Source: Acidimicrobiia bacterium
GTDB lineage: Bacteria > Actinomycetota > Acidimicrobiia > IMCC26256 > JAOSJM01
Assembly: GCA_027494165.1 (NCBI GenBank)
Contig: JAOSJM010000005.1
Span: 1,452,461-1,516,460 of the forward strand
Reading direction: 5' to 3'
Length of the DNA: 64,000 bases
In this document: in pieces, positions 36,938-47,139 of the stretch
Layout: each line of letters starts with the position of its first letter
Numbering within the stretch: the stretch's first letter is position 1
Notes under the pieces: model-generated
What the model saw: only the letters and a program-made list of their open reading frames with translations
Told to the model about the DNA's origin: nothing
Database searches by the model: none
Position numbers and translations under genes: made by a program

Positions 36938-37100
36938 ATCGGCATCTGGGGCCGCCGCACTGTACCCGGTTCTGCCGCGCAGCGACCCGGCTGCGCGCGT
37001 TGGGTGGCCGAACGGGCCCTGGCGGCGGGCCCGGACCGCGGTCGGTGGGGGGCGCGCGGGCGGATCGACCGCCGGTCGCTAGCGTGCGCGCATCGCGTTC

Positions 37101-37364
37101 GTGTCCAGGGAGTCCCACGGAGCCGCCGTCGAGGCCGGTGGCCGGACGATCGTCCCCGTCGCCGCGACCGTCGGCCTCCGGTTCGGCGGGAAGCGCGGGG
37201 GTGTGTTCTGGGCGCGCACCGGTCCCCGGCGGGTGGAGGTCACCGAGACCGGCGGGGAGCGTCGCGTCGTCGTGGTTCCCCGACGCGAGGCCCGGATCCG
37301 CGCCGGGATCCTGATCGCGGCCCTGGCCGCGGTCCTCGTCGTGCGAGCGAGGAGGTCACGATGA
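37101..37364 (+). CDS. small protein, putative GerW/YtfJ-family (Spore_YtfJ-like), hypothetical
   Basis: 87 aa: GGRTIVPVAATVGLRFGG...GGVFWARTGP with a C-terminal hydrophobic helix. The stop overlaps the next start (ATGA). Confidence 0.4.
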   Translation: MSRESHGAAVEAGGRTIVPVAATVGLRFGGKRGGVFWARTGPRRVEVTETGGERRVVVVPRREARIRAGILIAALAAVLVVRARRSR

Positions 37365-37852
37365 GCGAGCCCACCGTCCCTCCGTCGGGGCCGGGACAGG
37401 GGCCCGACCCCGCGGTCCTCGAGAACCTCGGTGCGCGGGTGGAGCGTTGCCTGGGTCGCCTGGTCGAGGACACGACGGCGGCGCAGGTGTTCGGCCCGCC
37501 GGTGCAGGTCGGGGAGCGGACCGTGATCACGGCGTCCGTCGTGCAGCGGGCCGGGGGTTCGGCTTCGGAGCGGGATCCGGCAGCGACCCCCGGGAGGGGG
37601 TGGGGCCGGCGGCGGGGCCGGCTTCGGCGGGTCGAGCGAGGGCCGTCCCGTCGCGGTCATCGACGTCGGGCCGGAGGGCGTCACGGTCCGTCCCGTGCTC
37701 GACCTCACCCGGATCGGGCTCACGGCGCTCACGGGCCTGCTCGCCGTCTGGCGCTTCGGCCGCCGTCCCGGGGGCATCGGGGAGGTCGAAGGGGCCCGGG
37801 CCGCCAGCGCCGCGGCGGTCCCGGCCGGCGCCACCCGGCGGTCCCCGGCGGC
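37361..37852 (+). CDS. GerW/YtfJ-family protein, at least two apparent frameshifts (37553-37557 and ~37640)
   Basis: RBS GAGGAGG precedes ATG 37361. The protein is split across three frames: ...VFGPPVQVGERTVITASVVQRAGG / GFGFGAGSGS...GPAAGPASAG / RPVAVIDVGPEGVTVRPVLDLTRIGLTALTGLLAVW. Together they make a typical YtfJ-like protein. Confidence 0.5.
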
Positions 37853-38560
37853 TAGCTCACCCCGGGGATCGCCGTCGAAGAGCTCGTCGCGCTCGCCGGG
37901 CCGGCGCCCGCCCGCCACGGCGACGGGTCCGTAGTGCTCGAGGAAGGCGGCCATGATCTCGTCGACCGGCAGGTCGGCGTAGGTGCCCCGGTCCGCGAGG
38001 TACTCCATGTGCCGGTCGCCCCCCGCGGTGTGCTCCTGGAGCAGGGCGTCGTGGACGCCGTCGAACTCGAGGGGCTTCACACCGAAGCGGTCGCACAGCT
38101 CCCGGTTGAACGCCGGGGTGGCCTTCACCCAGCGGCCGCCGAGGTACAGCTCGGTGTACCCGTGGAAGACGAACAGGTCGGTGCCCATCCGCTCCCGGAG
38201 CCGCTCGCTCTGGAGGTGGTTGCGGACGTCGGCGAAGCCGAGCCGGGCGGGGATGCCGACGGCCCGGGCGAGGGCCGCGAGCAGCACGGCCTTGGGCACG
38301 CAGAAGCTCGCGGGGGTTTGGAGCACGGCGCTGGCCCGGAAGGACGACACGTCGTCGACCGCGGTGTAGGGGTCGTAGCGGATGCCGTCGCGCACCGCGT
38401 GGAAGAGCCGGACGGCCCGCTCCCGGTCGGTGGCGGCGTCGCCGACGATCTCACGGGCCCGGGCGACCACGCCGGGGTCGTCGGAGTCGACGTACTCGCC
38501 CGGATCGAGGTACCGGGCGGGGTCGTCGTGGCCGCCGGGGTCGGCCGGGAGCGTCACCAT
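37850..38560 (-). CDS. transglutaminase-like superfamily protein (3' end uncertain, probable frameshift)
   Basis: ATG at 38560. About 230 aa match the bacterial transglutaminase-like cysteine protease core (...FCVPKAVLLAALARAVGIPARLGFADV...FHGYTELYLGGRWVKATPAF). The remainder of the 493-aa ORF is GC-frame junk. Confidence 0.6.
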
Positions 38561-38615
38561 GGCCGCAGCCTACCGGCGGTCACGCGAGAGCCGTCCGGGG
38601 GTCGGCGACGACGGG

Positions 38616-39317
38616 TCAGGGACGGGGTGGCGTCGGGCCGGCCGGGCGGGGCGACCAGATCGGGTAGTCGATGCCGGCCAGCCGGTTGATGGCGAAGCCC
38701 TGGATCACGAGCAGGACGACGGCGAGCATGAGCACGAGGAGCTGCTCGGGCTCGCGCAGGATCCCGAGCGACACGATGAGCGTCGTGGCGCCGGCGGGAG
38801 GGTGGGGTACCCGGGCCCACACCATCGCCCCGCTCGTCAGGCCGAGCGAGAGGGCGGCGGCGCCGACCCGTGCCGCGGTGACGCTGGTGGCGAGGGCCGG
38901 CGGGTCGTCGGTGAGCCCGAACACGACGAGGGCCAGGTACCCGGCCGCCGCCCCGATGGCGTGACCCCCGACGGTGTTGCGGGGAGACGCCGCCGGCGCC
39001 GTCGGCGTGTAGAAGAGCAGGAACGCGGTCGGGCCGAGCGACGGGAAGACGAACGGCTCACCGGTCACCCACGCCGCCGCGGCCATGATCGCGATGGAGA
39101 TGAGCCCGTTCACGAACGCGAACAGGCCCATCACGGTGGTGTTGGAGCGCCGGGCGGTGAGGGCGGGGATGCGGGCCCGGCGGGCCAGGCCGAAGACGAC
39201 CGCGGCCATGTCGCCTCCGATCGGCCCCGGCCGCCTCGGGTGCTCGGGCGCCTCGGCGGGCCGGGGATCGGACCCCGCGCCGGGTGGCCGGTCGTCGCCG
39301 TCGCCGCGGTCGGTCAT
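38616..39317 (-). CDS. HPP-family integral membrane protein
   Basis: Four to five TM helices and the signature ARVPHPPAGATTL. Confidence 0.7.
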   Translation of the reverse strand: MTDRGDGDDRPPGAGSDPRPAEAPEHPRRPGPIGGDMAAVVFGLARRARIPALTARRSNTTVMGLFAFVNGLISIAIMAAAAWVTGEPFVFPSLGPTAFLLFYTPTAPAASPRNTVGGHAIGAAAGYLALVVFGLTDDPPALATSVTAARVGAAALSLGLTSGAMVWARVPHPPAGATTLIVSLGILREPEQLLVLMLAVVLLVIQGFAINRLAGIDYPIWSPRPAGPTPPRP

Positions 39318-39510
39318 CGCTCCCGCAGGTACCGGTAGAAGGCCACGGATCCCGCGGCCAGCACGAGCGAGCACGCGGCCGAGACCCACGCCAGGCCGGG
39401 GTCGTCGGCGAGGAGGGCGTCGAGGCCGACGGTGAGCAGGAAGATCTGCAGGGACAGGAGCACGATCACGTACACGCCCACCGCGGAGGAGACCTTGCGG
39501 CCCAGCCGGC

Positions 39511-40014
39511 TCATCCGGGCCGGGCCCCCAGCGCCCAGACCGTGCCGTCGGATCGGACCTCGACGTCGATCCGGCCGAGCGGGCGCTGCGGAGGCCCCGC
39601 CCGCACGTCGCCGGTCCGGGCGTCGAAGAACCCCTCGTGGCAGGGGCACACCAGCTCCTCCTCGGCGGCCGAGTAGTAGACGACGCAGCCGAGGTGGGTG
39701 CACTTCTGGCTGAAGGCCGCGAGCTCGCCGTCGGGGAAGCGGACCAGGATCGCCGGGTCCTGCGAGCCCGGGTAGCGGAAGAGGTACGTGCCGTCCTCGG
39801 GGATCCGGTCGAGCGCGACGATCGGGCGGGGCTCCCCCTCGTTGACGCTCCGCAGCGAGGCCCACGCCGCGATGCCCACGCTGCCCGCGGCGAACGCCCC
39901 CGAGGCCAGCACGAGGTAGCGGACGAACTCCCGCCGGGTGACGTCGTCCTCGCCGGCCGACGTGTACGGGAAGTCCTCCCGCCAGGTCGCCTCGTTCGTC
40001 GCGTCCTGCGTCAC
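39511..40014 (-). CDS. Tat-exported Rieske [2Fe-2S] domain protein
   Basis: Twin-arginine signal [18 protein letters not shown]. Rieske boxes CTHLGC and CPCHEG. The start overlaps the stop of the upstream Fe-S subunit. Confidence 0.85.
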
Positions 40015-40629
40015 GATCCCTCCTCGATCCCGAACGGGTCGTCGAGCCAGCGGGTGTCCCGGGTCCCCAGCACGTCGATCGGCCCCTCGGAGACCACGAC
40101 CGTGTGCACCTTCGTGCGCACGGGCTGGTTCCCGAAGACGAAGTCACCGGTGAGGAGCCCGGTCCGGGTGGCGGCGAACCGGTCGAGGGTGCCGAACCAG
40201 AGCGCCTCGCTGGGGCAGACGGAGGCGCACATCGGCGCGAGGCCGACCGAGGACCGGTCGTAGCACATGTCGCACTTCATCATCTGCTCGAGACCCGCCA
40301 TGTGCTTCGGGACGCCGAACGGGCAGGCCAGGACGCAGTTCGAGCAGGCGATGCAGCGTGGCTTCAGGGCCGACTGCACGACCCCGTCCTCGTTCTGCTT
40401 GATGGCGTCGGCGGGGCACACCTCGGCGCAGGTGGGGTCCTCGCAGTGCATGCAGACCATCGGGACCGTCTGGGGGGTCGTCGCGGGGTCGACGAAGTCG
40501 AGGTGGATGAGCGAGTGCCCCCGGTGGGTCCCGCACTCCTCGCAGGCCGTCACGCAGGCCTGGCAGCCGATGCAGCGGCTCTGGTCGATGACGAAGACCT
40601 TGTCGGCCAGGCCCGGGAGCGCGTTCACG
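40011..40629 (-). CDS. 4Fe-4S ferredoxin-type iron-sulfur subunit (DmsB/NrfC/HybA-like, four clusters)
   Basis: GTG start. Four Cys clusters: [40 protein letters not shown] and [21 protein letters not shown]. Confidence 0.85.
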
Positions 40630-42859
40630 CGTCCGGCTCCGTCTTCAGCTCGAGGTCCCGCTGGTCGGTGAGGGACCGCCCCGGACCCACCCGCTCGATC
40701 CGCACGGCCGACACCTTGTACTCGGGGATCTTCGAGACCGGGTCGAGGGCCCGGTTCGTGAGCTGGTTGACCGCCCGGTCGCCGGGCCAGTGGAAGGGGA
40801 TGAACACGGTGTCGGGGCGGATCGTCGCGACCACCCTGGCCGGGAGCGTCATCGTCCCCCGGCGCGACGTGACTCGCACCAGGTCGCCGTCGGCGACACC
40901 GTGGCGCTCCGCCAGGAGGGGATGCATCTCGCAGAGCGGCTCCGGGTACTGGGCGAGGAGCGGGCCGATCCGGCGGGTCTGGGTGCCCGAGAGGTACTGG
41001 CTCACCACCCGCCCGGTGGTCAGCCACACCGGGTACTCGTCGTCGACGACCTCGGCCGGGGGCCGGTAGCGGACGGGGTGGAACCGGGCCCGCCCGTTCT
41101 CGGTGAAGAACCGGCCGCCCTCGTAGAGGCGGGGGGTGCCCGGGTGGCCCTCCTCCGGGCAGGGCCAGAACACGCCCTGCTCGTCCTCGACCCGCTCCCA
41201 GGTGATGCCGAGGTAGTCGGCCGTCCCCCCGTGGGAGGCGACGCGCATCTCGTCGAACATCTCCCGGGTGCTCGTGTAGGGGAAGTACCGGCCCTGCCCG
41301 AGCCGGCGGGCGATGTCGAGGAGGATCTCCCAGTCGCGCCGGGCCCGGCCGGGCGGCGCCGTGGCCGGGTTGATCTTGACCACCCGCCCCTCGACCGTCG
41401 TCGACGTCCCCTCGTCCTCCTCGTGCAGCGAGCCGGGGAGCACCACGTCGGCGTGGAAGGCGCTCTCGGAGAGGAAGAACTCGATGACGGCGTAGAACTC
41501 CAGCTTGTCGAGCGCCTCGGCGGTGAAGGCGGCGTCGGGCAACGAGACCGCCGGGTTGAAGCAGATGGACAGGAGTCCCTTGATCTCCCCGGCGTGGATG
41601 GCCTCCACGATCTCCTCGGCCGTCAGGCCCTTGCCGGGGATCTCGTCGACGTCGCAGCCCCACACGGACGCCACGTAGGCCCGGTGCTCGGGGTTCGTGA
41701 TGTCGCGGTTCCCGGGGAGCTGGTCGCACTTGTGGCCCTGCTCCCGGCCTCCCTGGCCGTTCCCCTGGCCGGTGATGGTGGTGACGCCGCAGCCCGGCTT
41801 GCCGTACTTGCCGGTCGCGAGCCCGAGGTTGATGCACGAGAGGACGTTCTCGACGCCCTTGCTCTGGTGCTCGATCCCCCGGGCGTGGAGCAGCATGCCG
41901 GTGGCGGAGGTGCCCCACAGCTCGGCGGCCTGCTCGATGCGGGCGGCGGGCACGCCGGTGACCTCGGCGCCCCACTCGAGGGTGTGGTCGCGGACGGCCT
42001 CGACCGCCTCCTCGAAGCCCTCGGTGTGGTGGTCGATGAAGTCGTGGTCGAGCCAGTCCCGCTCGACGAGCACGTGGAGGATCGTGCCCATGAGGGCCGA
42101 GTCCGTGCCGGGCCGGAGCCCGAGGAAGACGTCGGCGGTGCGGGCGAGCGGGGTCACCCGCGGGTCGGCCACGATGAGCTTCGCCCCCGGTCGCGGGCCC
42201 GCCAGATGTAGCTGGTGGTGATGGGGGCGCACTCGGCGACGTTCGCGCCGGCGACGAAGACCACGTCGGCCAGGGGGATGTCGCTCCACGGGTTCGCGGC
42301 CCGGTCGACACCGAGGGCCTTCTTGTTCGCCGCCCCGGCCGAGACCATGCAGAGCCGGCCGTTGTAGTCGAGGTTGGCGGTCCCCAGCGCCAGCCGGGCG
42401 AACTTCCCGATCAGGTAGGACTTCTCGTTCGTCAGCGAGACGCCCGACAGCATGGCGAAGGCGTCGGGGCCGTGGGCCTCCTGGATGCGCCGGATCTCCG
42501 ACACGACCCGGTCGAGCGCGTGGTCCCAGGTCACGGTCCGGAATCCGGTGGGGCTGGCCGGGTCGCGCTCGAGCGGGTCGAGGAGCCGGTCGGGGTGGCT
42601 GCCTTGCAGGTAGCGCTTCACGCCCTTGGGGCAGAGCTTCCCCCTCGTTGAACGGGAACTCGTACCAGGGCTCGAAGCCGACGACCTGCTCCCCGGCGAC
42701 CTTCAGCACGATGCCGCACTGCTGGCCGCAGAAGCAGCAGTGGGTCTTCACCTCCCGGTCGACCTCGAGGCCCGCGTCCCAGCCACCCGGCGGCGCCTGG
42801 TTGAGGTGCGGGCCGTACCGGGCGACGAGCTCCTCCTCGGAGATCGGGGGTCGGGCCAT
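40625..42859 (-). CDS. molybdopterin (bis-MGD) oxidoreductase catalytic subunit, NasA/NarB/FdhA-like, cytoplasmic (no Tat signal); at least two apparent frameshifts (~42645 and ~42185)
   Basis: The N-terminal Fe-S motif [10 protein letters not shown]...(KLCPKG) is in one frame. The segment [30 protein letters not shown]...[13 protein letters not shown] (ORF 42154-42621) is in another. The remainder ([19 protein letters not shown]...) is in the 802-aa ORF. Trimming G5 to G4 at about 42645 restores [14 protein letters not shown]. Confidence 0.75.
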
Positions 42860-43968
42860 CAGCCGAAGCCCCCTACCCGTCGCGACTGGGCCAGGGTCAC
42901 GAGCCGGCGGCGGCACGGCGGGCAGACGTCCTGGTAGTGACCGCCGCCGGGGGCCGAGTAGTCGAAGCCGACCCGCGGCAGGACCGCCTTGAGGTCGCCG
43001 ACCTGGAGCGCCGACGCGAACGGCCGCCCGCACTCGACGCAGTGCTGCTGCGGCCCGGACTCACCCTCGGCCTTGTAGTAGGCGATGCCGAGGTTCGCGG
43101 GCCGCTGGAAGATGTGGAACAGCTTCCCGAACGGGATGTACATGAGGCCGAGGATCACGGTGAGCGCGTGGACCGTGGTCAGGAAGGTGTAGAAGCGGCC
43201 CTCCATCCAGAGGTTCGACGCGGTGAGCAGGAGCCCGGTGATCGAGACGGCGAAGAGACCGGCGAGCGCGAGGAAGTCGCTCGACCGCTCCACGGCGAGG
43301 GCCCCGGGGTCGCGCAGCCGGCGCGACAGGAAGATGAAGACGCCGGCGAGCACGAGGAACGCGGCGACGTCGAGGGCGTGGATGACGAACCAGCCGAGGA
43401 CGCCGCGGGAGTCGAAGCTGAAGGTGCCGATGCCGGCCACGTACGTGCGGTACTCGCGGGCGTCCTGCCCCACCGACTCGAAGTGGAGCCACCCGAACAC
43501 GAGCGGGAAGGTCACCAGCGCGGCGAGCACGCAGCCCCAGAACACGAGCTGGTGGGCCGCCCAGCGGGCCCCGGACCGGCGCCGGATGAAGCCCTGGGCG
43601 GCGAGGTTCGTGAGCACGAGGCCCGGGAGGGAACCCACGTTGCGCACCCGGGCACCCCGGCGCCAGAAGGCCTCCCAGCCCCGGCGGTTCAGCATCGCGG
43701 TCGGCGGGCGGCGGAGCCACACGACGTAGCGGTACACGACGCCGAAGAGGGCGAAGAGCGTGCCGAACAGGTACCCGACGAGCGCGGCGTCGAACCAGCG
43801 CAGCCCGCTGCTGCCGAGGACCACGAGCGCGACGGTGACGGCGACGGCGACGAGACCCCAGGCCACGGCGCTCCGGTCGAGCCCGCCGGCACCCCGCGCG
43901 CTCATGGGTGGTCCCGGCGCCGGTCGGTGCGTCCGGGCCGGGCGGTGCGAGCCACGCCATGGAGTCAA
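42859..43968 (-). CDS. NarI-like (nitrate reductase gamma family) di-heme cytochrome b membrane subunit with C-terminal Cys-rich ribbon
   Basis: Five TM helices with conserved His residues. The C-terminal motif is HCVECGRPF...CPPCRRR. Confidence 0.7.
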   Translation of the reverse strand: MTPWRGSHRPARTHRPAPGPPMSARGAGGLDRSAVAWGLVAVAVTVALVVLGSSGLRWFDAALVGYLFGTLFALFGVVYRYVVWLRRPPTAMLNRRGWEAFWRRGARVRNVGSLPGLVLTNLAAQGFIRRRSGARWAAHQLVFWGCVLAALVTFPLVFGWLHFESVGQDAREYRTYVAGIGTFSFDSRGVLGWFVIHALDVAAFLVLAGVFIFLSRRLRDPGALAVERSSDFLALAGLFAVSITGLLLTASNLWMEGRFYTFLTTVHALTVILGLMYIPFGKLFHIFQRPANLGIAYYKAEGESGPQQHCVECGRPFASALQVGDLKAVLPRVGFDYSAPGGGHYQDVCPPCRRRLVTLAQSRRVGGFG

Positions 43969-44088
43969 GCACGGCCCGGCCCCGGTTTCCCGTCAGCCGC
44001 CGGCGGCACCGGTCACACCCGGGGTGGCGGCGGCGGTCGGTCCCGGCTAGGAAGGGGGCGCGGGGAGCGGTCGGCGCGGAGGTGCGGG

Positions 44089-44645
44089 ATGCACCGGGAG
44101 GCGAGGACGGAGCCCCCCGTCCGGGTGCTGCAGGCGACGTTCCGGGACGTGGGCAGCGCGCACCGGGCGGTCGAGGCCCTCGAGCGGGCCGGGGTCGACG
44201 GTCAGGCCATCGTGCTGCGGGACCCGGCCGCCTCGCAGGCGCGGGATCCCCGCCACACCCGTGCGCTCGACGCCCGGGGGATGCACCGCTTCGGCGGCGG
44301 GATCGTGCGCGGCGGCGTCGCGGGCGGGCTCGTCGGGGCGGTGCTGGGAGCGGCGGTGGCGCTCGTGCTGTCGGGCCCCCTGCCGTGGGGAGGGCCGGTG
44401 GCCTGTCGGCGCTGGGCCTCGGCGGGCTGGCGCTCGGCGTGTACGTCGGGACGCTCGTGGGGGCGGCGAGGAACGCGGGCTTCTCCGACGCGTGGGAGCT
44501 CACCTTCGCCGACGTCCCGGCGGCGCCGGTCGTCGTCGAGGTGCGAGCCGTGAGCCCGAGGACGGTCCGGACCGCCCGACCCGTGCTGCGTTCCCTCGGT
44601 GGCGAGACCGTCCCGGCCGCCACGCCGCCCGGGACCTCCGGATGA
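44089..44645 (+). CDS. hypothetical protein with C-terminal glycine-zipper TM region, apparent frameshift near 44400
   Basis: The N-terminal part (MHREARTEPPVRVLQATFRDVGSAHRAVEALERAGVDGQAIVL..., ORF 42937-44553 frame) continues as ...GGLSALGLGGLALGVYVGTLVGAARNAGFSDAWELTF (ORF 43908-44645 frame). Confidence 0.5.
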
Positions 44646-44663: not shown

Positions 44664-44885
44664 TCAGCCGAGCTCCTGGAGGCGCTCCCGGTACTCCTCG
44701 GTCGTGATCTCGCCCCGCGCGTAGCGCTCGGCGAGGATGTCGCGGGCCCGGGCCCGGCCGTCGCCCGCCCCGGGTGCCCGGCCGGCCCGCGCTCCCCAGA
44801 CGAGGGCGGCGACCGCGAGCCCGACGAGGGCCACCATGACGACGGTGCCCAGGAGCCACATCCAGCCCCAACCGTCGCCCCACAT
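44664..44885 (-). CDS. SHOCT-domain membrane protein
   Basis: MWGDGWGWMWLLGTVVMVALVGLAVAALVW...ILAERYARGEITTEEYRERLQELG: a TM helix plus a SHOCT motif. Confidence 0.7.
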   Translation of the reverse strand: MWGDGWGWMWLLGTVVMVALVGLAVAALVWGARAGRAPGAGDGRARARDILAERYARGEITTEEYRERLQELG

Positions 44886-44961
44886 GTGGTCGTGGTCTCC
44901 GCGATGAGCCGGCAGGCTGCCGATCAGCGTGCTCCACACGGTCCCTCCTCCCGTCGGAAGC

Positions 44962-47139
44962 TCAGCGTGTGTCCACGGTCCGGGGCGTGCGGCCGGGCGC
45001 CCGTGGCACACCGTCCCGGTCGTCGCGGTCGGGCCCGTCGGCGCGCAGGTCGACCCGCCGGAGGAGCTGGGCGTTGAGGGCCACGATCACCGTCGACGCG
45101 CTCATCAGCAGCGCGCCGACGGCCGGGGCCATCGTGACCCCGGCCCAGGCCAGCGCCCCGGCGGCGAGCGGGATGGCCACGACGTTGTAGCCGGCGGCCC
45201 AGGCCAGGTTCTGCACCATCTTCCGGTACGCGGCGTGGGACAGCCGGACGACGCCCAGCACCGCTCGGGGATCCGAGGACGCCAGCACCACCCCGGCCGA
45301 CTCGATGGCGACGTCGGTGCCGGCGCCGATGGCGATGCCGACGTCGGCCCGGGCCAGGGCCGGGGCGTCGTTCACCCCGTCGCCCACCATGGCCACCCGC
45401 AGGCCGCGCTCCTGGAGCTCGGCGACCCTGGCGTCCTTGTCCTCGGGGAGGATCTCGGCCATGACCTCGTCGATCCCGAGTCGCTCACCGACGGCCTCGG
45501 CGACCGGGCGGGCGTCGCCGGTGATCATGACGACCCGTACCCCGAGGCGGTGGAGCTCCTCCACGGCCGCGGCCGACTCGGGCCGGACCTCGTCCTCCAG
45601 CGCCATGGCCCCGACGACCTCGCCGTCCCTGACGACGTGCAGCACGGCTGCGCCGCGCGCGGACCACTCCTCGACCGTGTCGGCCAGCGCGCCGGGGGAG
45701 CGCAGGTCACGCTCACGCAGGAGAGCCGGGCCGCCGACCGCCACCGCGGCCCCGTCCACGGAGGCTTCGACGCCGCGCCCCGCGATGGAGCGGAAGTCCC
45801 GCCCGTCCGGGACCGGCCCCCGTTCCCGGGCCTCGGCCACGATGGCCCGGGCCAGGGGATGCTCGCTCTCGGCCTCGGCCGCGGCGGCCAGCGCGAGGAC
45901 CCGGTCCTCGTCGCCGTCGAGCGCGGCGACGGCCGTCACGGCGTGCTCGCCCCGGGTCAACGTCCCGGTCTTGTCGAACAGCACGGCGTCCACCTGACGC
46001 ATCCGCTCGAGGGCGAGCCGGTCCTTCACCAGGATCCCGGCCCGGGCGGACAGCGCGGTCGAGAGGGCGATCACGAGGGGGATCGCCAGCCCGAGCGCGT
46101 GGGGGCAGGAGATCACGAGCACCGTCACGGTCCGGACGACCGCGTCGGCGGCGTCGCCGGCGAGGAGCCACGCGGCGAAGGTGACGGTCGCGGCGGCGAG
46201 GGCCACGTAGAAGAGGAGCGCCGCGGCCCGGTCGGCGAGGGCCTGGGCCCGGGAGCGCGAGGTCTGGGCCTGCTCGACGAGGCGCCGGATGCCCGCCAGC
46301 GCGGTGTCGTCGCCGATCGCGTCGACCGCCACCCTGATCGACGAGTCGGTGGCCACCGTCCCGGCCACGACGCGGTCGCCCACCCCCCGGGGGACCGGCC
46401 GGGACTCACCGGTGATCATGGACTCGTCCACCTCGGCCTCGCCGTCGACCACGGTCCCGTCGGCGGGCACCCGGGCGCCGGGGCGGACCAGCGCGACGTC
46501 GCCCACGGTCAGCTCGGCGATGGAGACCGTCTCGGTGCCGCCGTCGACGACCCGCTCGGCCTCGTCCGGCAGCAGCTCCGCGAGCGCGCCGAGCGCCCCT
46601 CGGGCCTGGCCCACGGCCCGCATCTCCTGCCAGTGACCCAGGAGCATGACGACGATCAGCGCCGCCAGCTCCCACCAGAGCTCGAGGTCGAGGACGCCCA
46701 GGGACCCGAGCACCGAGGTGACGAAGGCCACCGAGATCGCCATGGCGATGAGCAGCATCATCCCGGGTCGCCGGTCGCGGGCCTCGCGCCAGCCTCCGGC
46801 GAGGAACGGCCGGCCCCCGTGGAGGAAGACGACCGTGCCGAGGACCGGGGCGACGAGGCCGTCGCCGGGGAAGCTCGGGGGCGTGAGGTGCAGCCAGCCC
46901 TGGATCGTCTCGCTGAAGACCAGCACCGGGAGGGTCAGCACGAGGTCGACCCAGAAGAGGCGGCGGAACATCGCGGCGTGGTCGTCGTGCCCGCCGTGAC
47001 CCTCGTGACCCTCGTGACCGCGGTCCGGCCGGGACCCGGGGCGCGACGGCCCGGACCCCTGCTCCGGGCCCGGACCGGCGGGGAGGCTGCCGCCGGGCCG
47101 CCGGACCGTCCCGGAACGGTCGTGCTCCGTGTGCGTCAT
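44962..47139 (-). CDS. heavy-metal (Cu+/Ag+-type, CPx) P1B-type ATPase with His-rich N-terminus
   Basis: ATG at 47137-47139. N-terminal GHEGHEGHGGHDDH. Motifs TGES, CPH (SCPHALGLA), DKTGTLT and GDGVNDAP are present. Confidence 0.9.
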   Translation of the reverse strand: MTHTEHDRSGTVRRPGGSLPAGPGPEQGSGPSRPGSRPDRGHEGHEGHGGHDDHAAMFRRLFWVDLVLTLPVLVFSETIQGWLHLTPPSFPGDGLVAPVLGTVVFLHGGRPFLAGGWREARDRRPGMMLLIAMAISVAFVTSVLGSLGVLDLELWWELAALIVVMLLGHWQEMRAVGQARGALGALAELLPDEAERVVDGGTETVSIAELTVGDVALVRPGARVPADGTVVDGEAEVDESMITGESRPVPRGVGDRVVAGTVATDSSIRVAVDAIGDDTALAGIRRLVEQAQTSRSRAQALADRAAALLFYVALAAATVTFAAWLLAGDAADAVVRTVTVLVISCPHALGLAIPLVIALSTALSARAGILVKDRLALERMRQVDAVLFDKTGTLTRGEHAVTAVAALDGDEDRVLALAAAAEAESEHPLARAIVAEARERGPVPDGRDFRSIAGRGVEASVDGAAVAVGGPALLRERDLRSPGALADTVEEWSARGAAVLHVVRDGEVVGAMALEDEVRPESAAAVEELHRLGVRVVMITGDARPVAEAVGERLGIDEVMAEILPEDKDARVAELQERGLRVAMVGDGVNDAPALARADVGIAIGAGTDVAIESAGVVLASSDPRAVLGVVRLSHAAYRKMVQNLAWAAGYNVVAIPLAAGALAWAGVTMAPAVGALLMSASTVIVALNAQLLRRVDLRADGPDRDDRDGVPRAPGRTPRTVDTR

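Follow-up and report, generated by a model that had tools for sequence, protein, structure and literature searches.

A putative quinol-dependent nitrate reductase combining a NasC-like molybdoenzyme, a NarI-fold cytochrome b and an exported Rieske protein in Acidimicrobiia and other bacterial lineages

A 64,000-nucleotide stretch of the genome of an Acidimicrobiia bacterium (GenBank assembly GCA_027494165.1, contig JAOSJM010000005.1, positions 1,452,461 to 1,516,460; analysed whole and called the window below) contains, on its minus strand, a run of six genes extending from position 43905 down to 38616 and encoding, in this order, a membrane protein, a molybdenum cofactor (Moco) subunit, an iron-sulfur (FeS) subunit, a Rieske protein, a DUF6755 protein and an HPP-family protein. 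We propose, with a probability of roughly 0.6, that the products of the first five would form a membrane-bound, (mena)quinol-dependent nitrate reductase with a cytoplasmic active site, that is, an analogue of NarGHI put together from different modules. The initial annotation of this DNA had described a four-gene molybdoenzyme module. Reading the window sequence directly confirmed its four open reading frames (ORFs) on the minus strand, coordinates included, and the four genes are indeed present, but the DUF6755 gene, which is coupled to them as a fifth, had been overlooked, as had the HPP gene. The six genes are the following:

42859-43905, minus strand: membrane subunit, 348 amino acids (aa), six predicted transmembrane (TM) helices, NarI/EtfD-like cytochrome b fold, predicted cytoplasmic C-terminal CxxC...CxxC tail
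40625-42859, minus strand: molybdenum bis-pyranopterin guanine dinucleotide (Mo-bisPGD) catalytic subunit of NasC-like type; its corrected frame encodes 744 aa, with 40 extra residues at the N-terminus and a [4Fe-4S] motif in the N-terminal part, but no signal peptide
40011-40628, minus strand: iron-sulfur subunit, 205 aa, four Cys groups, DmsB/FdnH/HybA-like, GTG start overlapping the stop codon of the Moco gene
39511-40014, minus strand: Rieske [2Fe-2S] protein, 167 aa, with a Tat-like (twin-arginine translocation) motif, a TM anchor and a bc-type cluster domain
39314-39514, minus strand: DUF6755 gene, 66 aa, two TM helices, ATG overlapping the Rieske stop codon
38616-39209, minus strand: HPP-family protein of the membrane (197 aa), a putative transporter of or channel for nitrite, 105 nucleotides downstream of the DUF6755 gene

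Stop and start codons overlap at the first four junctions: TGATG at 42859-42861 (membrane/Moco), GTGA at 40625-40628 (Moco/FeS), GTGA at 40011-40014 (FeS/Rieske) and ATGA at 39511-39514 (Rieske/DUF6755). The translational coupling claimed earlier for the four genes is borne out by these overlaps, and the last of them, absent from the earlier list, adds to it. The ORF of the membrane protein reaches upstream to a TTG at 43968, previously taken as its start; the ATG at 43905, which gives the 348-aa protein of the NCBI record, is likelier. Both the membrane and the Rieske proteins are 100% identical to NCBI proteins of an Acidimicrobiia metagenome-assembled genome (MAG). The G+C content of the window is about 74%, and a scan of positions 38300-44400 detected no promoter or terminator, as expected at such a value in an actinobacterium.

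Once its frame is corrected (see below), the Moco protein displays the N-terminal four-Cys [4Fe-4S] motif ending in ...(27)...CPKG, and matches Molybdop_Fe4S4 (PF04879), Molybdopterin (PF00384) and Molydop_binding (PF01568) of Pfam, all above their cutoffs. NasC is its best-scoring NCBIfam model, followed by Fdh-alpha (585 bits), haloarchaeal NasA (392 bits) and NapA (264 bits), and NarG (TIGR01580) reaches 40 bits against a cutoff of 1084. At the position of the molybdenum ligand the protein has Cys-Met (GRLCMVS), together with a NasC-type 11-residue loop motif; formate dehydrogenases possess Sec/Cys-His and RGQNNVQG at the same positions. Both motifs are shared with NasC-type proteins from annotated nas operons, in an alignment that comprised FdhF and NapA of E. 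coli, a formate dehydrogenase of Haloferax, an unannotated homologue from Brevibacillus and three NasC-like proteins encoded on plasmids in operons with NirB. A neighbour-joining tree (727 columns, 100 bootstraps) places the Moco subunits of operons like that of the window in a clade of their own (100/100) and unites this clade with NasC to the exclusion of FdhF and NapA (100/100). Identity to classical NasC amounts to 44-51%, and a conserved N-terminal extension of 40 residues (...[YF]GP[HT]L...) is absent from classical NasC. None of the 18 orthologues checked has an RR motif or a hydrophobic N-terminus. The subunit can accordingly be described, as before, as NasC/NarB-like and devoid of a Tat signal, and it lies outside the classical nas operon type.

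The FeS subunit contains four Cys groups, each of which would by its sequence give one [4Fe-4S] cluster, and matches Pfam Fer4_11 with 74 bits, in agreement with the DmsB-like, four-cluster protein annotated initially. DmsB, HybA and FdnH are its nearest relatives; no equivalog cutoff is reached (DmsB, 96 vs 214 bits), and NarH (TIGR01660) scores 38 bits against a cutoff of 524. A signal peptide is absent from all of the orthologue N-termini that were examined.

The membrane protein (hereafter the anchor) matches Nitrate_red_gam of Pfam with 19.4 bits (cutoff 22.9) and gives weak NCBIfam matches to TmcC, QmoC and HmcE. Its AlphaFold model, computed from an alignment of 40 diverse homologues, has a predicted local distance difference test score (pLDDT) of 93.9, and comparison of this model indicates a NarI/EtfD-like fold, with EtfD as the best structural match. 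Hydropathy and the positive-inside rule predict six TM helices with both termini in the cytoplasm; the loop formed by residues 65-119 holds 12 Lys/Arg, and the 80-residue C-terminal tail is likewise predicted to be cytoplasmic. This tail reads HCVECG...(35)...CPPC, and its four Cys (CxxC-x35-CxxC), which presumably hold a metal, are invariant or nearly so, as are H118 and H264 on the predicted cytoplasmic side and H246 on the outer side. No CCG domain is detected in the protein by Pfam, only the CxxC-x35-CxxC tail. In the AF2 model, the outer loop between TM3 and TM4 (residues 140-165, window ~43411-43488) folds into a three-stranded beta-sheet, a feature absent from NarI and a candidate docking surface for the Rieske domain. 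The small protein encoded last in the coupled series matches DUF6755 of Pfam with 24.7 bits (cutoff 27), and an acidobacterial orthologue does so with 42.6 bits. A local profile links all 64 orthologues, NCBI annotates the one of Deinococcus as 'DUF6755 family protein', and the gene is also called on Logan contigs.

In the Rieske protein, TRREFVRYL precedes a hydrophobic helix, and the cluster boxes CTHLGC and CPCH, whose starts are 18 residues apart, come after it. PetC, actinobacterial QcrA and AioB are the nearest NCBIfam models, all far under their cutoffs (52 vs 250). Of the 67 orthologues with a Rieske match, 64 have a readable box, and all 64 keep the pattern CxHxxC-x12-CxCH, which includes both pairs of cluster ligands as well as both disulfide cysteines, which are typical of exported, high-potential Rieske proteins. 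A [ST]RRxFxK[FY]L-like motif with a hydrophobic helix was found in all 65 orthologues that have a complete N-terminus. The protein is therefore a putative exported Rieske protein of bc type with a Tat-like anchor; its Tat-dependent export had been annotated before. About 12 residues before the twin-arginine motif, 63 of these 65 orthologues share a W-R-x-D-F-P peptide (in the window, the Rieske N-terminus spans 39930-40014). The n-regions of Tat signals are normally not conserved; since such conservation is unusual for a mere signal peptide, a contact of the Rieske protein on the cytoplasmic side is suggested, and the peptide may serve there in docking.

The gene set is widely conserved. The membrane protein belongs to a family of 162 clusters (50% identity) at E<1e-30, and a scan of a species-representative genome set (one genome per species), run with a nine-sequence alignment, yielded at least 578 stretches matching the anchor, of which 80 loci were retrieved. 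Sixty-three loci extend for at least 4.7 kb on the downstream side of the anchor gene; tblastn detected the three genes for the Moco, FeS and Rieske proteins in 61 of them, and in 60 the order is the same, so that the Rieske gene is a conserved part of the neighbourhood. Together with the separate clade of the Moco subunit, this goes against both of the refutations foreseen in the initial annotation. In 64 of 67 loci a local profile identifies the gene right after the Rieske gene as that of DUF6755, the remaining three loci stopping at a contig edge. One bin has the FeS-Rieske-DUF6755 genes upstream of the anchor gene. Hosts of the operon belong to at least six phyla: Acidimicrobiia (Iamia, Ilumatobacteraceae, Microthrixaceae), Deinococcus, Gemmatimonadota, Acidobacteriota (Blastocatellia, Bryobacteraceae, Thermoanaerobaculia, Holophagales, Vicinamibacterales), Phycisphaerales and other Planctomycetota, as well as Verrucomicrobiota and Myxococcota bins. 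These lineages presumably all use menaquinone. Cultured carriers are Iamia sp. SCSIO 61187 and four Deinococcus megaplasmids (65% Moco identity), with D. psychrotolerans and D. wulumuqiensis NEB 479 among the hosts; in the latter (pDrdI, operon at DVJ83_RS17015-17035) the genes for an 'MFS transporter', a molybdopterin oxidoreductase, a 4Fe-4S dicluster protein, a Rieske protein, a DUF6755 protein and a nitrate/nitrite transporter all overlap. Some taxonomic labels disagree with the locus that they are attached to. The loci labelled 'Burkholderiales' (L005), 'Chthoniobacterales' (L020) and 'Ardenticatenales' (L026) are 66-79% identical to the Acidimicrobiia versions, and L053 ('Acidimicrobiia') holds the acidobacterial type with a NarK fusion (see below), which suggests mis-binning or recent transfer.

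The genes around the operon point to nitrate and nitrite. In 13 genomes, NarK and the anchor are encoded by a single uninterrupted ORF of ~730 aa (TIGR00886, up to 234 bits); this fusion was seen in many Acidobacteriota, and in other genomes narK lies just downstream. The fusion suggests substrate channelling and fits the predicted N-in topology of the anchor, as NarK ends in the cytoplasm. It also explains why NCBI names the anchor 'MFS transporter', a name found on proteins devoid of an MFS domain (P0001, P0009, P0076, P0089, and WP_114673479 of D. wulumuqiensis), to which it has probably spread from the acidobacterial fusion proteins. Two apparent anchor-Moco 'fusions' (P0265 and P0372) were dropped as evidence on topology, both being frameshifted junk from error-prone assemblies. 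Clustering of the flanking ORFs (Pfam) revealed as recurrent neighbours the ScdA/RIC di-iron repair protein (26 loci), the SLAC1 anion channel (18), bacterial globin (12), YwiC (12), an Rrf2/NsrR-like regulator (11), a ModC-like ATPase (9), ClC (5) and NnrS (4). The HPP gene follows the module in 16 of 44 Acidimicrobiia-like loci; the window protein matches TM_HPP (PF04982) with 95.4 bits (cutoff 27.2), its 197-aa gene is also called on Logan contigs, and HPP proteins have been reported as nitrite transporters (Maeda 2014, as cited in PMC7438415). The active-site motifs, the NarK fusions, the HPP protein and the neighbours related to nitric oxide (NO) stress together point to nitrate as the substrate, and the earlier statement that substrate specificity could not be inferred from the sequence is too cautious.

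The catalytic gene of the window is interrupted by two frameshifts, each a single-G change in a run of G:

42640-42644, minus strand: frameshift site 1, Moco gene, five G in place of four (GAGGGGGAAG, one G extra), assembly error
42184-42188, minus strand: frameshift site 2, Moco gene, five G in place of six (CGGGGGCGAAG, one G short), inferred assembly error

At site 1, the Logan short-read contigs L002 and L003 of the same organism (SRR11288141 and SRR11288142; 99.8% identical) read GAGGGGAAG, with four G, and give an unbroken Moco N-terminus of 170 aa across the site. The short-read contigs cover site 1 and not site 2, and those bearing the Rieske gene end within the FeS gene; at site 2 the corrected reading aligns without gaps with all orthologues, and an exact look-up of the corrected Moco protein found no identical entry. 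Eight other single-base indels and three mismatches separate the window from the short-read contigs over ~6.4 kb. With site 1 (42640) included, the indels lie at 37552, 37595, 37769, 37863, 42640, 44061, 44083 (two bases) and 44386, roughly one per 700 bases, which is the signature of long-read homopolymer errors. Many long ORFs of the window are probably broken or artificially extended as a result; an example is the 493-aa ORF at 37079-38560, in which the real gene encodes a 234-aa transglutaminase-like protein. A programmed frameshift or a pseudogene was ruled out on the nature of the two changes and on the absence of site 1 from the short-read contigs. Because the frameshift at site 1 stems from an error of assembly, the operon is probably intact, and the Moco gene, judged from its corrected sequence, most likely so. 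That the cluster is a decaying set of pseudogenes, or that its product is a formate dehydrogenase and not a functional nitrate reductase, is accordingly very improbable. The two frameshifts would speak for the former and the FdhF-type closest solved structures for the latter. Against decay stand the same-organism short-read assemblies, the frequency of homopolymer indels in the window and the conservation of the corrected frame; formate dehydrogenase, considered because FdhF gave the best PDB matches, was ruled out by the tree and by the active site, which has residues of the NasC/Nap type where a formate dehydrogenase has Cys/Sec-His and the Arg of RGQNNVQG.

In the enzyme that we propose, nitrate would enter through the associated anion transporter, namely HPP or SLAC1 in Acidimicrobiia and NarK elsewhere. 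Quinol would be oxidised at the outer face of the NarI-like cytochrome b, the Tat-inserted Rieske domain and DUF6755 being located at the same face, and b-type haem would carry the electrons across the membrane to the cytoplasmic face. There, the Cys4 tail and the four-cluster FeS subunit would hand them over to the [4Fe-4S] cluster and the Mo-bisPGD of the Moco subunit, and the NasC-type subunit would reduce nitrate to nitrite, to be exported or processed further, with the products of the NO-stress genes handling by-products. A layout of this kind, like that of NarGHI, would be electrogenic. The electron chain proposed earlier, from a periplasmic Rieske centre to a cytoplasmic Moco site, remains plausible. 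For the Rieske protein three roles remain: a part of the quinol site that takes up one electron, as in a Qo site; a hitch-hiking carrier for the Moco and FeS subunits; or a link to a partner outside. The first could be developed into a more specific proposal, which we regard as tentative and rather unlikely, namely that DUF6755 and the exported Rieske protein join the NarI-type cytochrome b in a new kind of quinol-oxidising site, a counterpart of Qo that evolved on another cytochrome scaffold. Menaquinol would give one electron to the high-potential Rieske centre and, through it, to an outside acceptor (a cupredoxin or NirK), and the second would be driven onto low-potential haem b and the FeS subunit, across the membrane to the NasC-type molybdenum site, a site that would normally need a reductant at the level of ferredoxin or NADH.

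Several observations weigh against a quinol-dependent nitrate reductase with a cytoplasmic site. NasC scores 785 bits on the Moco subunit, under its curated equivalog cutoff of 1100, and FdhF-type formate dehydrogenases (482 bits) are the closest solved structures. DmsB-type FeS subunits are mostly periplasmic. A periplasmic Rieske centre is without an obvious place in a simple NarGHI-like path, and no conserved outside acceptor for it (cytochrome c or cupredoxin) was found among the recurrent neighbourhood clusters, Iamia excepted. In the anchor, the second axial ligand of the putative outer haem is variable (H141 or H176 in 32 of 40 homologues), and EtfD, the best structural match, is a single-haem protein with five TM helices (PMC13083937); for these two reasons the anchor may bind either one haem or two. 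Two Chthonomonadaceae MAG loci (L050, 1-8000, and L052) encode NarK, the anchor and the Moco subunit with no FeS, Rieske or DUF6755 gene downstream, and a gene for a flavin adenine dinucleotide (FAD)-binding protein follows instead; they represent either a two-gene minimal form or loci whose missing genes lie upstream, past the contig end, as in the related L080. Lastly, we infer the quinol donor and the sidedness of the Moco and FeS subunits from sequence alone. As to a partner for the Rieske centre, the operon of Iamia sp. SCSIO 61187 is immediately preceded by genes for a cupredoxin and for a multicopper protein of three domains, possibly NirK (L001 8307-9907), and is the only locus with such a candidate.

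The same nitrate reductase might have its active site outside, if the Moco and FeS subunits, folded in the cytoplasm, were exported by hitch-hiking on the Tat signal of the Rieske protein. Electrons from quinol oxidation at the cytochrome b would then run through the Rieske and FeS proteins to Moco on the outer face, and recycling of the second electron through the b haems, in the manner of a Q cycle, is conceivable, as proposed for haloarchaeal pNarGH with NarB and NarC. We consider this arrangement unlikely. It would give the Rieske centre a clear role, and it agrees with the conservation of the twin-arginine anchor and of both disulfide cysteines across orthologues, with the translational coupling of the Rieske gene to the FeS gene, and with the relationship of the FeS subunit to the exported DmsB, FdnH and HybA types. 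Arsenite oxidase offers a precedent, being a Moco enzyme whose large subunit AioA is exported through the Rieske subunit AioB. Another is haloarchaeal pNar, in which a Rieske protein and a cytochrome b feed an outward-facing nitrate reductase (PMC7754194). With an active site outside, however, the fused NarK and the adjacent nitrate/nitrite transporters would be needless, and the anchor would have no use for its cytoplasmic Cys4 tail and His pair. Furthermore, the Moco subunit is sister to cytoplasmic NasC and not to NapA, and no gene for a Tat-proofreading chaperone (NarJ, NapD or DmsD type) recurs in the neighbourhood clusters, in a search that was non-exhaustive. The soluble subunits are without a signal peptide in any phylum and their closest relatives are cytoplasmic; for this reason, and because of the porter fused to the anchor and the orientation of the tail and the His pair, we favour with modest confidence a site that faces the cytoplasm.

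An ordinary assimilatory Nas enzyme that draws on the quinone pool instead of NADH or ferredoxin, with no energy conservation, appears improbable to us. The Moco subunit does belong to the NasC lineage, a published survey counts all NasC/NasA homologues as assimilatory (PMC10100899), and in Iamia the operon lies ~8 kb from NIR_SIR and FocA/NirC genes. Iamia is, however, the exception: no assimilatory nitrite reductase genes were found in the ±10 kb flanks of the other 80 loci, and none of 80 related loci has NirB/NasB or NirD/NasG beside the Moco gene. Classical nas operons (NasC, NirB, NirD) belong to a separate clade with other partners, and it is in operons of the NarK-NasC-NirB-NirD type that the nearest Moco genes outside the family lie. 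The recurrent neighbours are genes for NO stress and anion efflux, as is typical where nitrate reduction is dissimilatory, and a transmembrane cytochrome b with a Rieske protein is a bioenergetic architecture. Because of this neighbourhood and this architecture, we lean towards a dissimilatory role for the five-subunit enzyme.

Comparison with known systems indicates that each module has been described before and that the combination appears to be new. The Moco subunit resembles NasC, NarB and NasA in its domain order, its four-Cys [4Fe-4S] motif, its Cys-Met and loop motifs and its lack of a signal peptide. It differs from them in its sequence (44-51% identity, a clade of its own, the 40-aa extension) and in its partners, which here are a cytochrome b, an FeS subunit, an exported Rieske protein and DUF6755, and never NirB/NirD or NasB. 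With NarGHI and NarK the system shares soluble subunits without an export signal and an association with NarK, NO-stress genes and YwiC. Conversely, its Moco and FeS subunits are not NarG and NarH, its molybdenum ligand is Cys where that of NarGHI is Asp, its anchor has six TM helices and the Cys4 tail and is sometimes fused to NarK, the Rieske and DUF6755 proteins are additional, and no narJ was seen in the operon. The haloarchaeal pNarGH cluster also encodes a Tat-type Rieske protein, NarB, and a di-haem b-type cytochrome, NarC, proposed to oxidise quinol; its catalytic subunit is of NarG type, faces outward and has its own Tat signal, NarB did not co-purify, and NarC has nine TM helices and is described as non-homologous to NarI (PMC7754194). 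None of the window subunits is orthologous to the haloarchaeal ones. AioAB is likewise a Mo-bisPGD enzyme with the Tat signal on its small, bc-type Rieske subunit and none on the large one. AioA, however, has a [3Fe-4S] cluster and no amino-acid ligand to molybdenum, whereas the window Moco subunit has the Cys ligand and the four-Cys motif, and the scores are low (148 vs 359 bits for Moco with TIGR02693, 39.5 vs 95.7 for Rieske with TIGR02694); moreover, Aio is an oxidase and lacks both a four-cluster subunit and a cytochrome b anchor.

The anchors HdrE, DsrM, TmcC, QmoC and EtfD resemble the window anchor in that membrane haem b joins a cytoplasmic Cys-rich module to the menaquinone pool; they differ in that the window anchor is devoid of a CCG/HdrD-like domain and has a molybdoenzyme as its partner. 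With bc1 and b6f complexes, finally, the Rieske protein shares the CxHxxC and CxCH boxes, the disulfide cysteines and the twin-arginine signal anchor, whereas its partner cytochrome has a NarI fold, matching NarI-like families and folds only and not PetB/QcrB, and cytochromes c1 and f are missing. The operon is outside the strict Nas, Nar, Nap, Aio and bc families, since a defining feature of each was looked for and not found in it. The Rieske partner had been called unusual at first, and this holds in part: soluble NirD/NasG occur in nas operons and the Rieske protein NarB in haloarchaeal pNar, but an exported bc-type Rieske protein together with a NarI-type cytochrome is unusual indeed. A full-text search, with most subscription journals outside its coverage, found no description of this subunit combination.

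The flanks of the run of six genes are unrelated to it. Genes for a transglutaminase-like protein and a glucosaminidase lie on one side, and SHOCT, P-type ATPase, DUF6328 and sigma factor genes on the other. A divergent gene at 44088-44645 (plus strand), frameshifted in the window, encodes 185 aa on Logan contig L002; past it lie a SHOCT-domain gene (44664-45011, minus strand) and then a P-type ATPase gene with a CPH motif (44962 to ~47100, minus strand).

A superfamily survey treats NasC/NasA as cytoplasmic and exclusively assimilatory (PMC10100899). The clade described here is represented in several hundred species or more, from phyla that are abundant in soil and water, and its members fall among the NasC/NasA/NarB homologues that surveys count as assimilatory only; if the enzyme is dissimilatory, the capacity of the host taxa for nitrate respiration and nitrite production is underestimated. 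With respect to annotation, the anchor ('MFS transporter' at NCBI) and DUF6755, hitherto without a function, can now be placed in a complex. Since cultured bacteria carry such operons (Deinococcus strains, on megaplasmids, and Iamia sp. SCSIO 61187), the predictions made here are directly testable. For bioenergetics, a bc-type Rieske protein, a NarI-fold cytochrome and a Nas-type molybdoenzyme would make a new combination from the "redox construction kit". Should the quinol site prove to be Qo-like, this would be the third independent recruitment of a bc-type Rieske protein, after the Rieske/cytochrome b complexes and arsenite oxidase, and the fifth architecture of nitrate reductase, beside Nar, Nap, Nas and the eukaryotic enzyme, one that metagenomic surveys now mis-score as 'assimilatory'.

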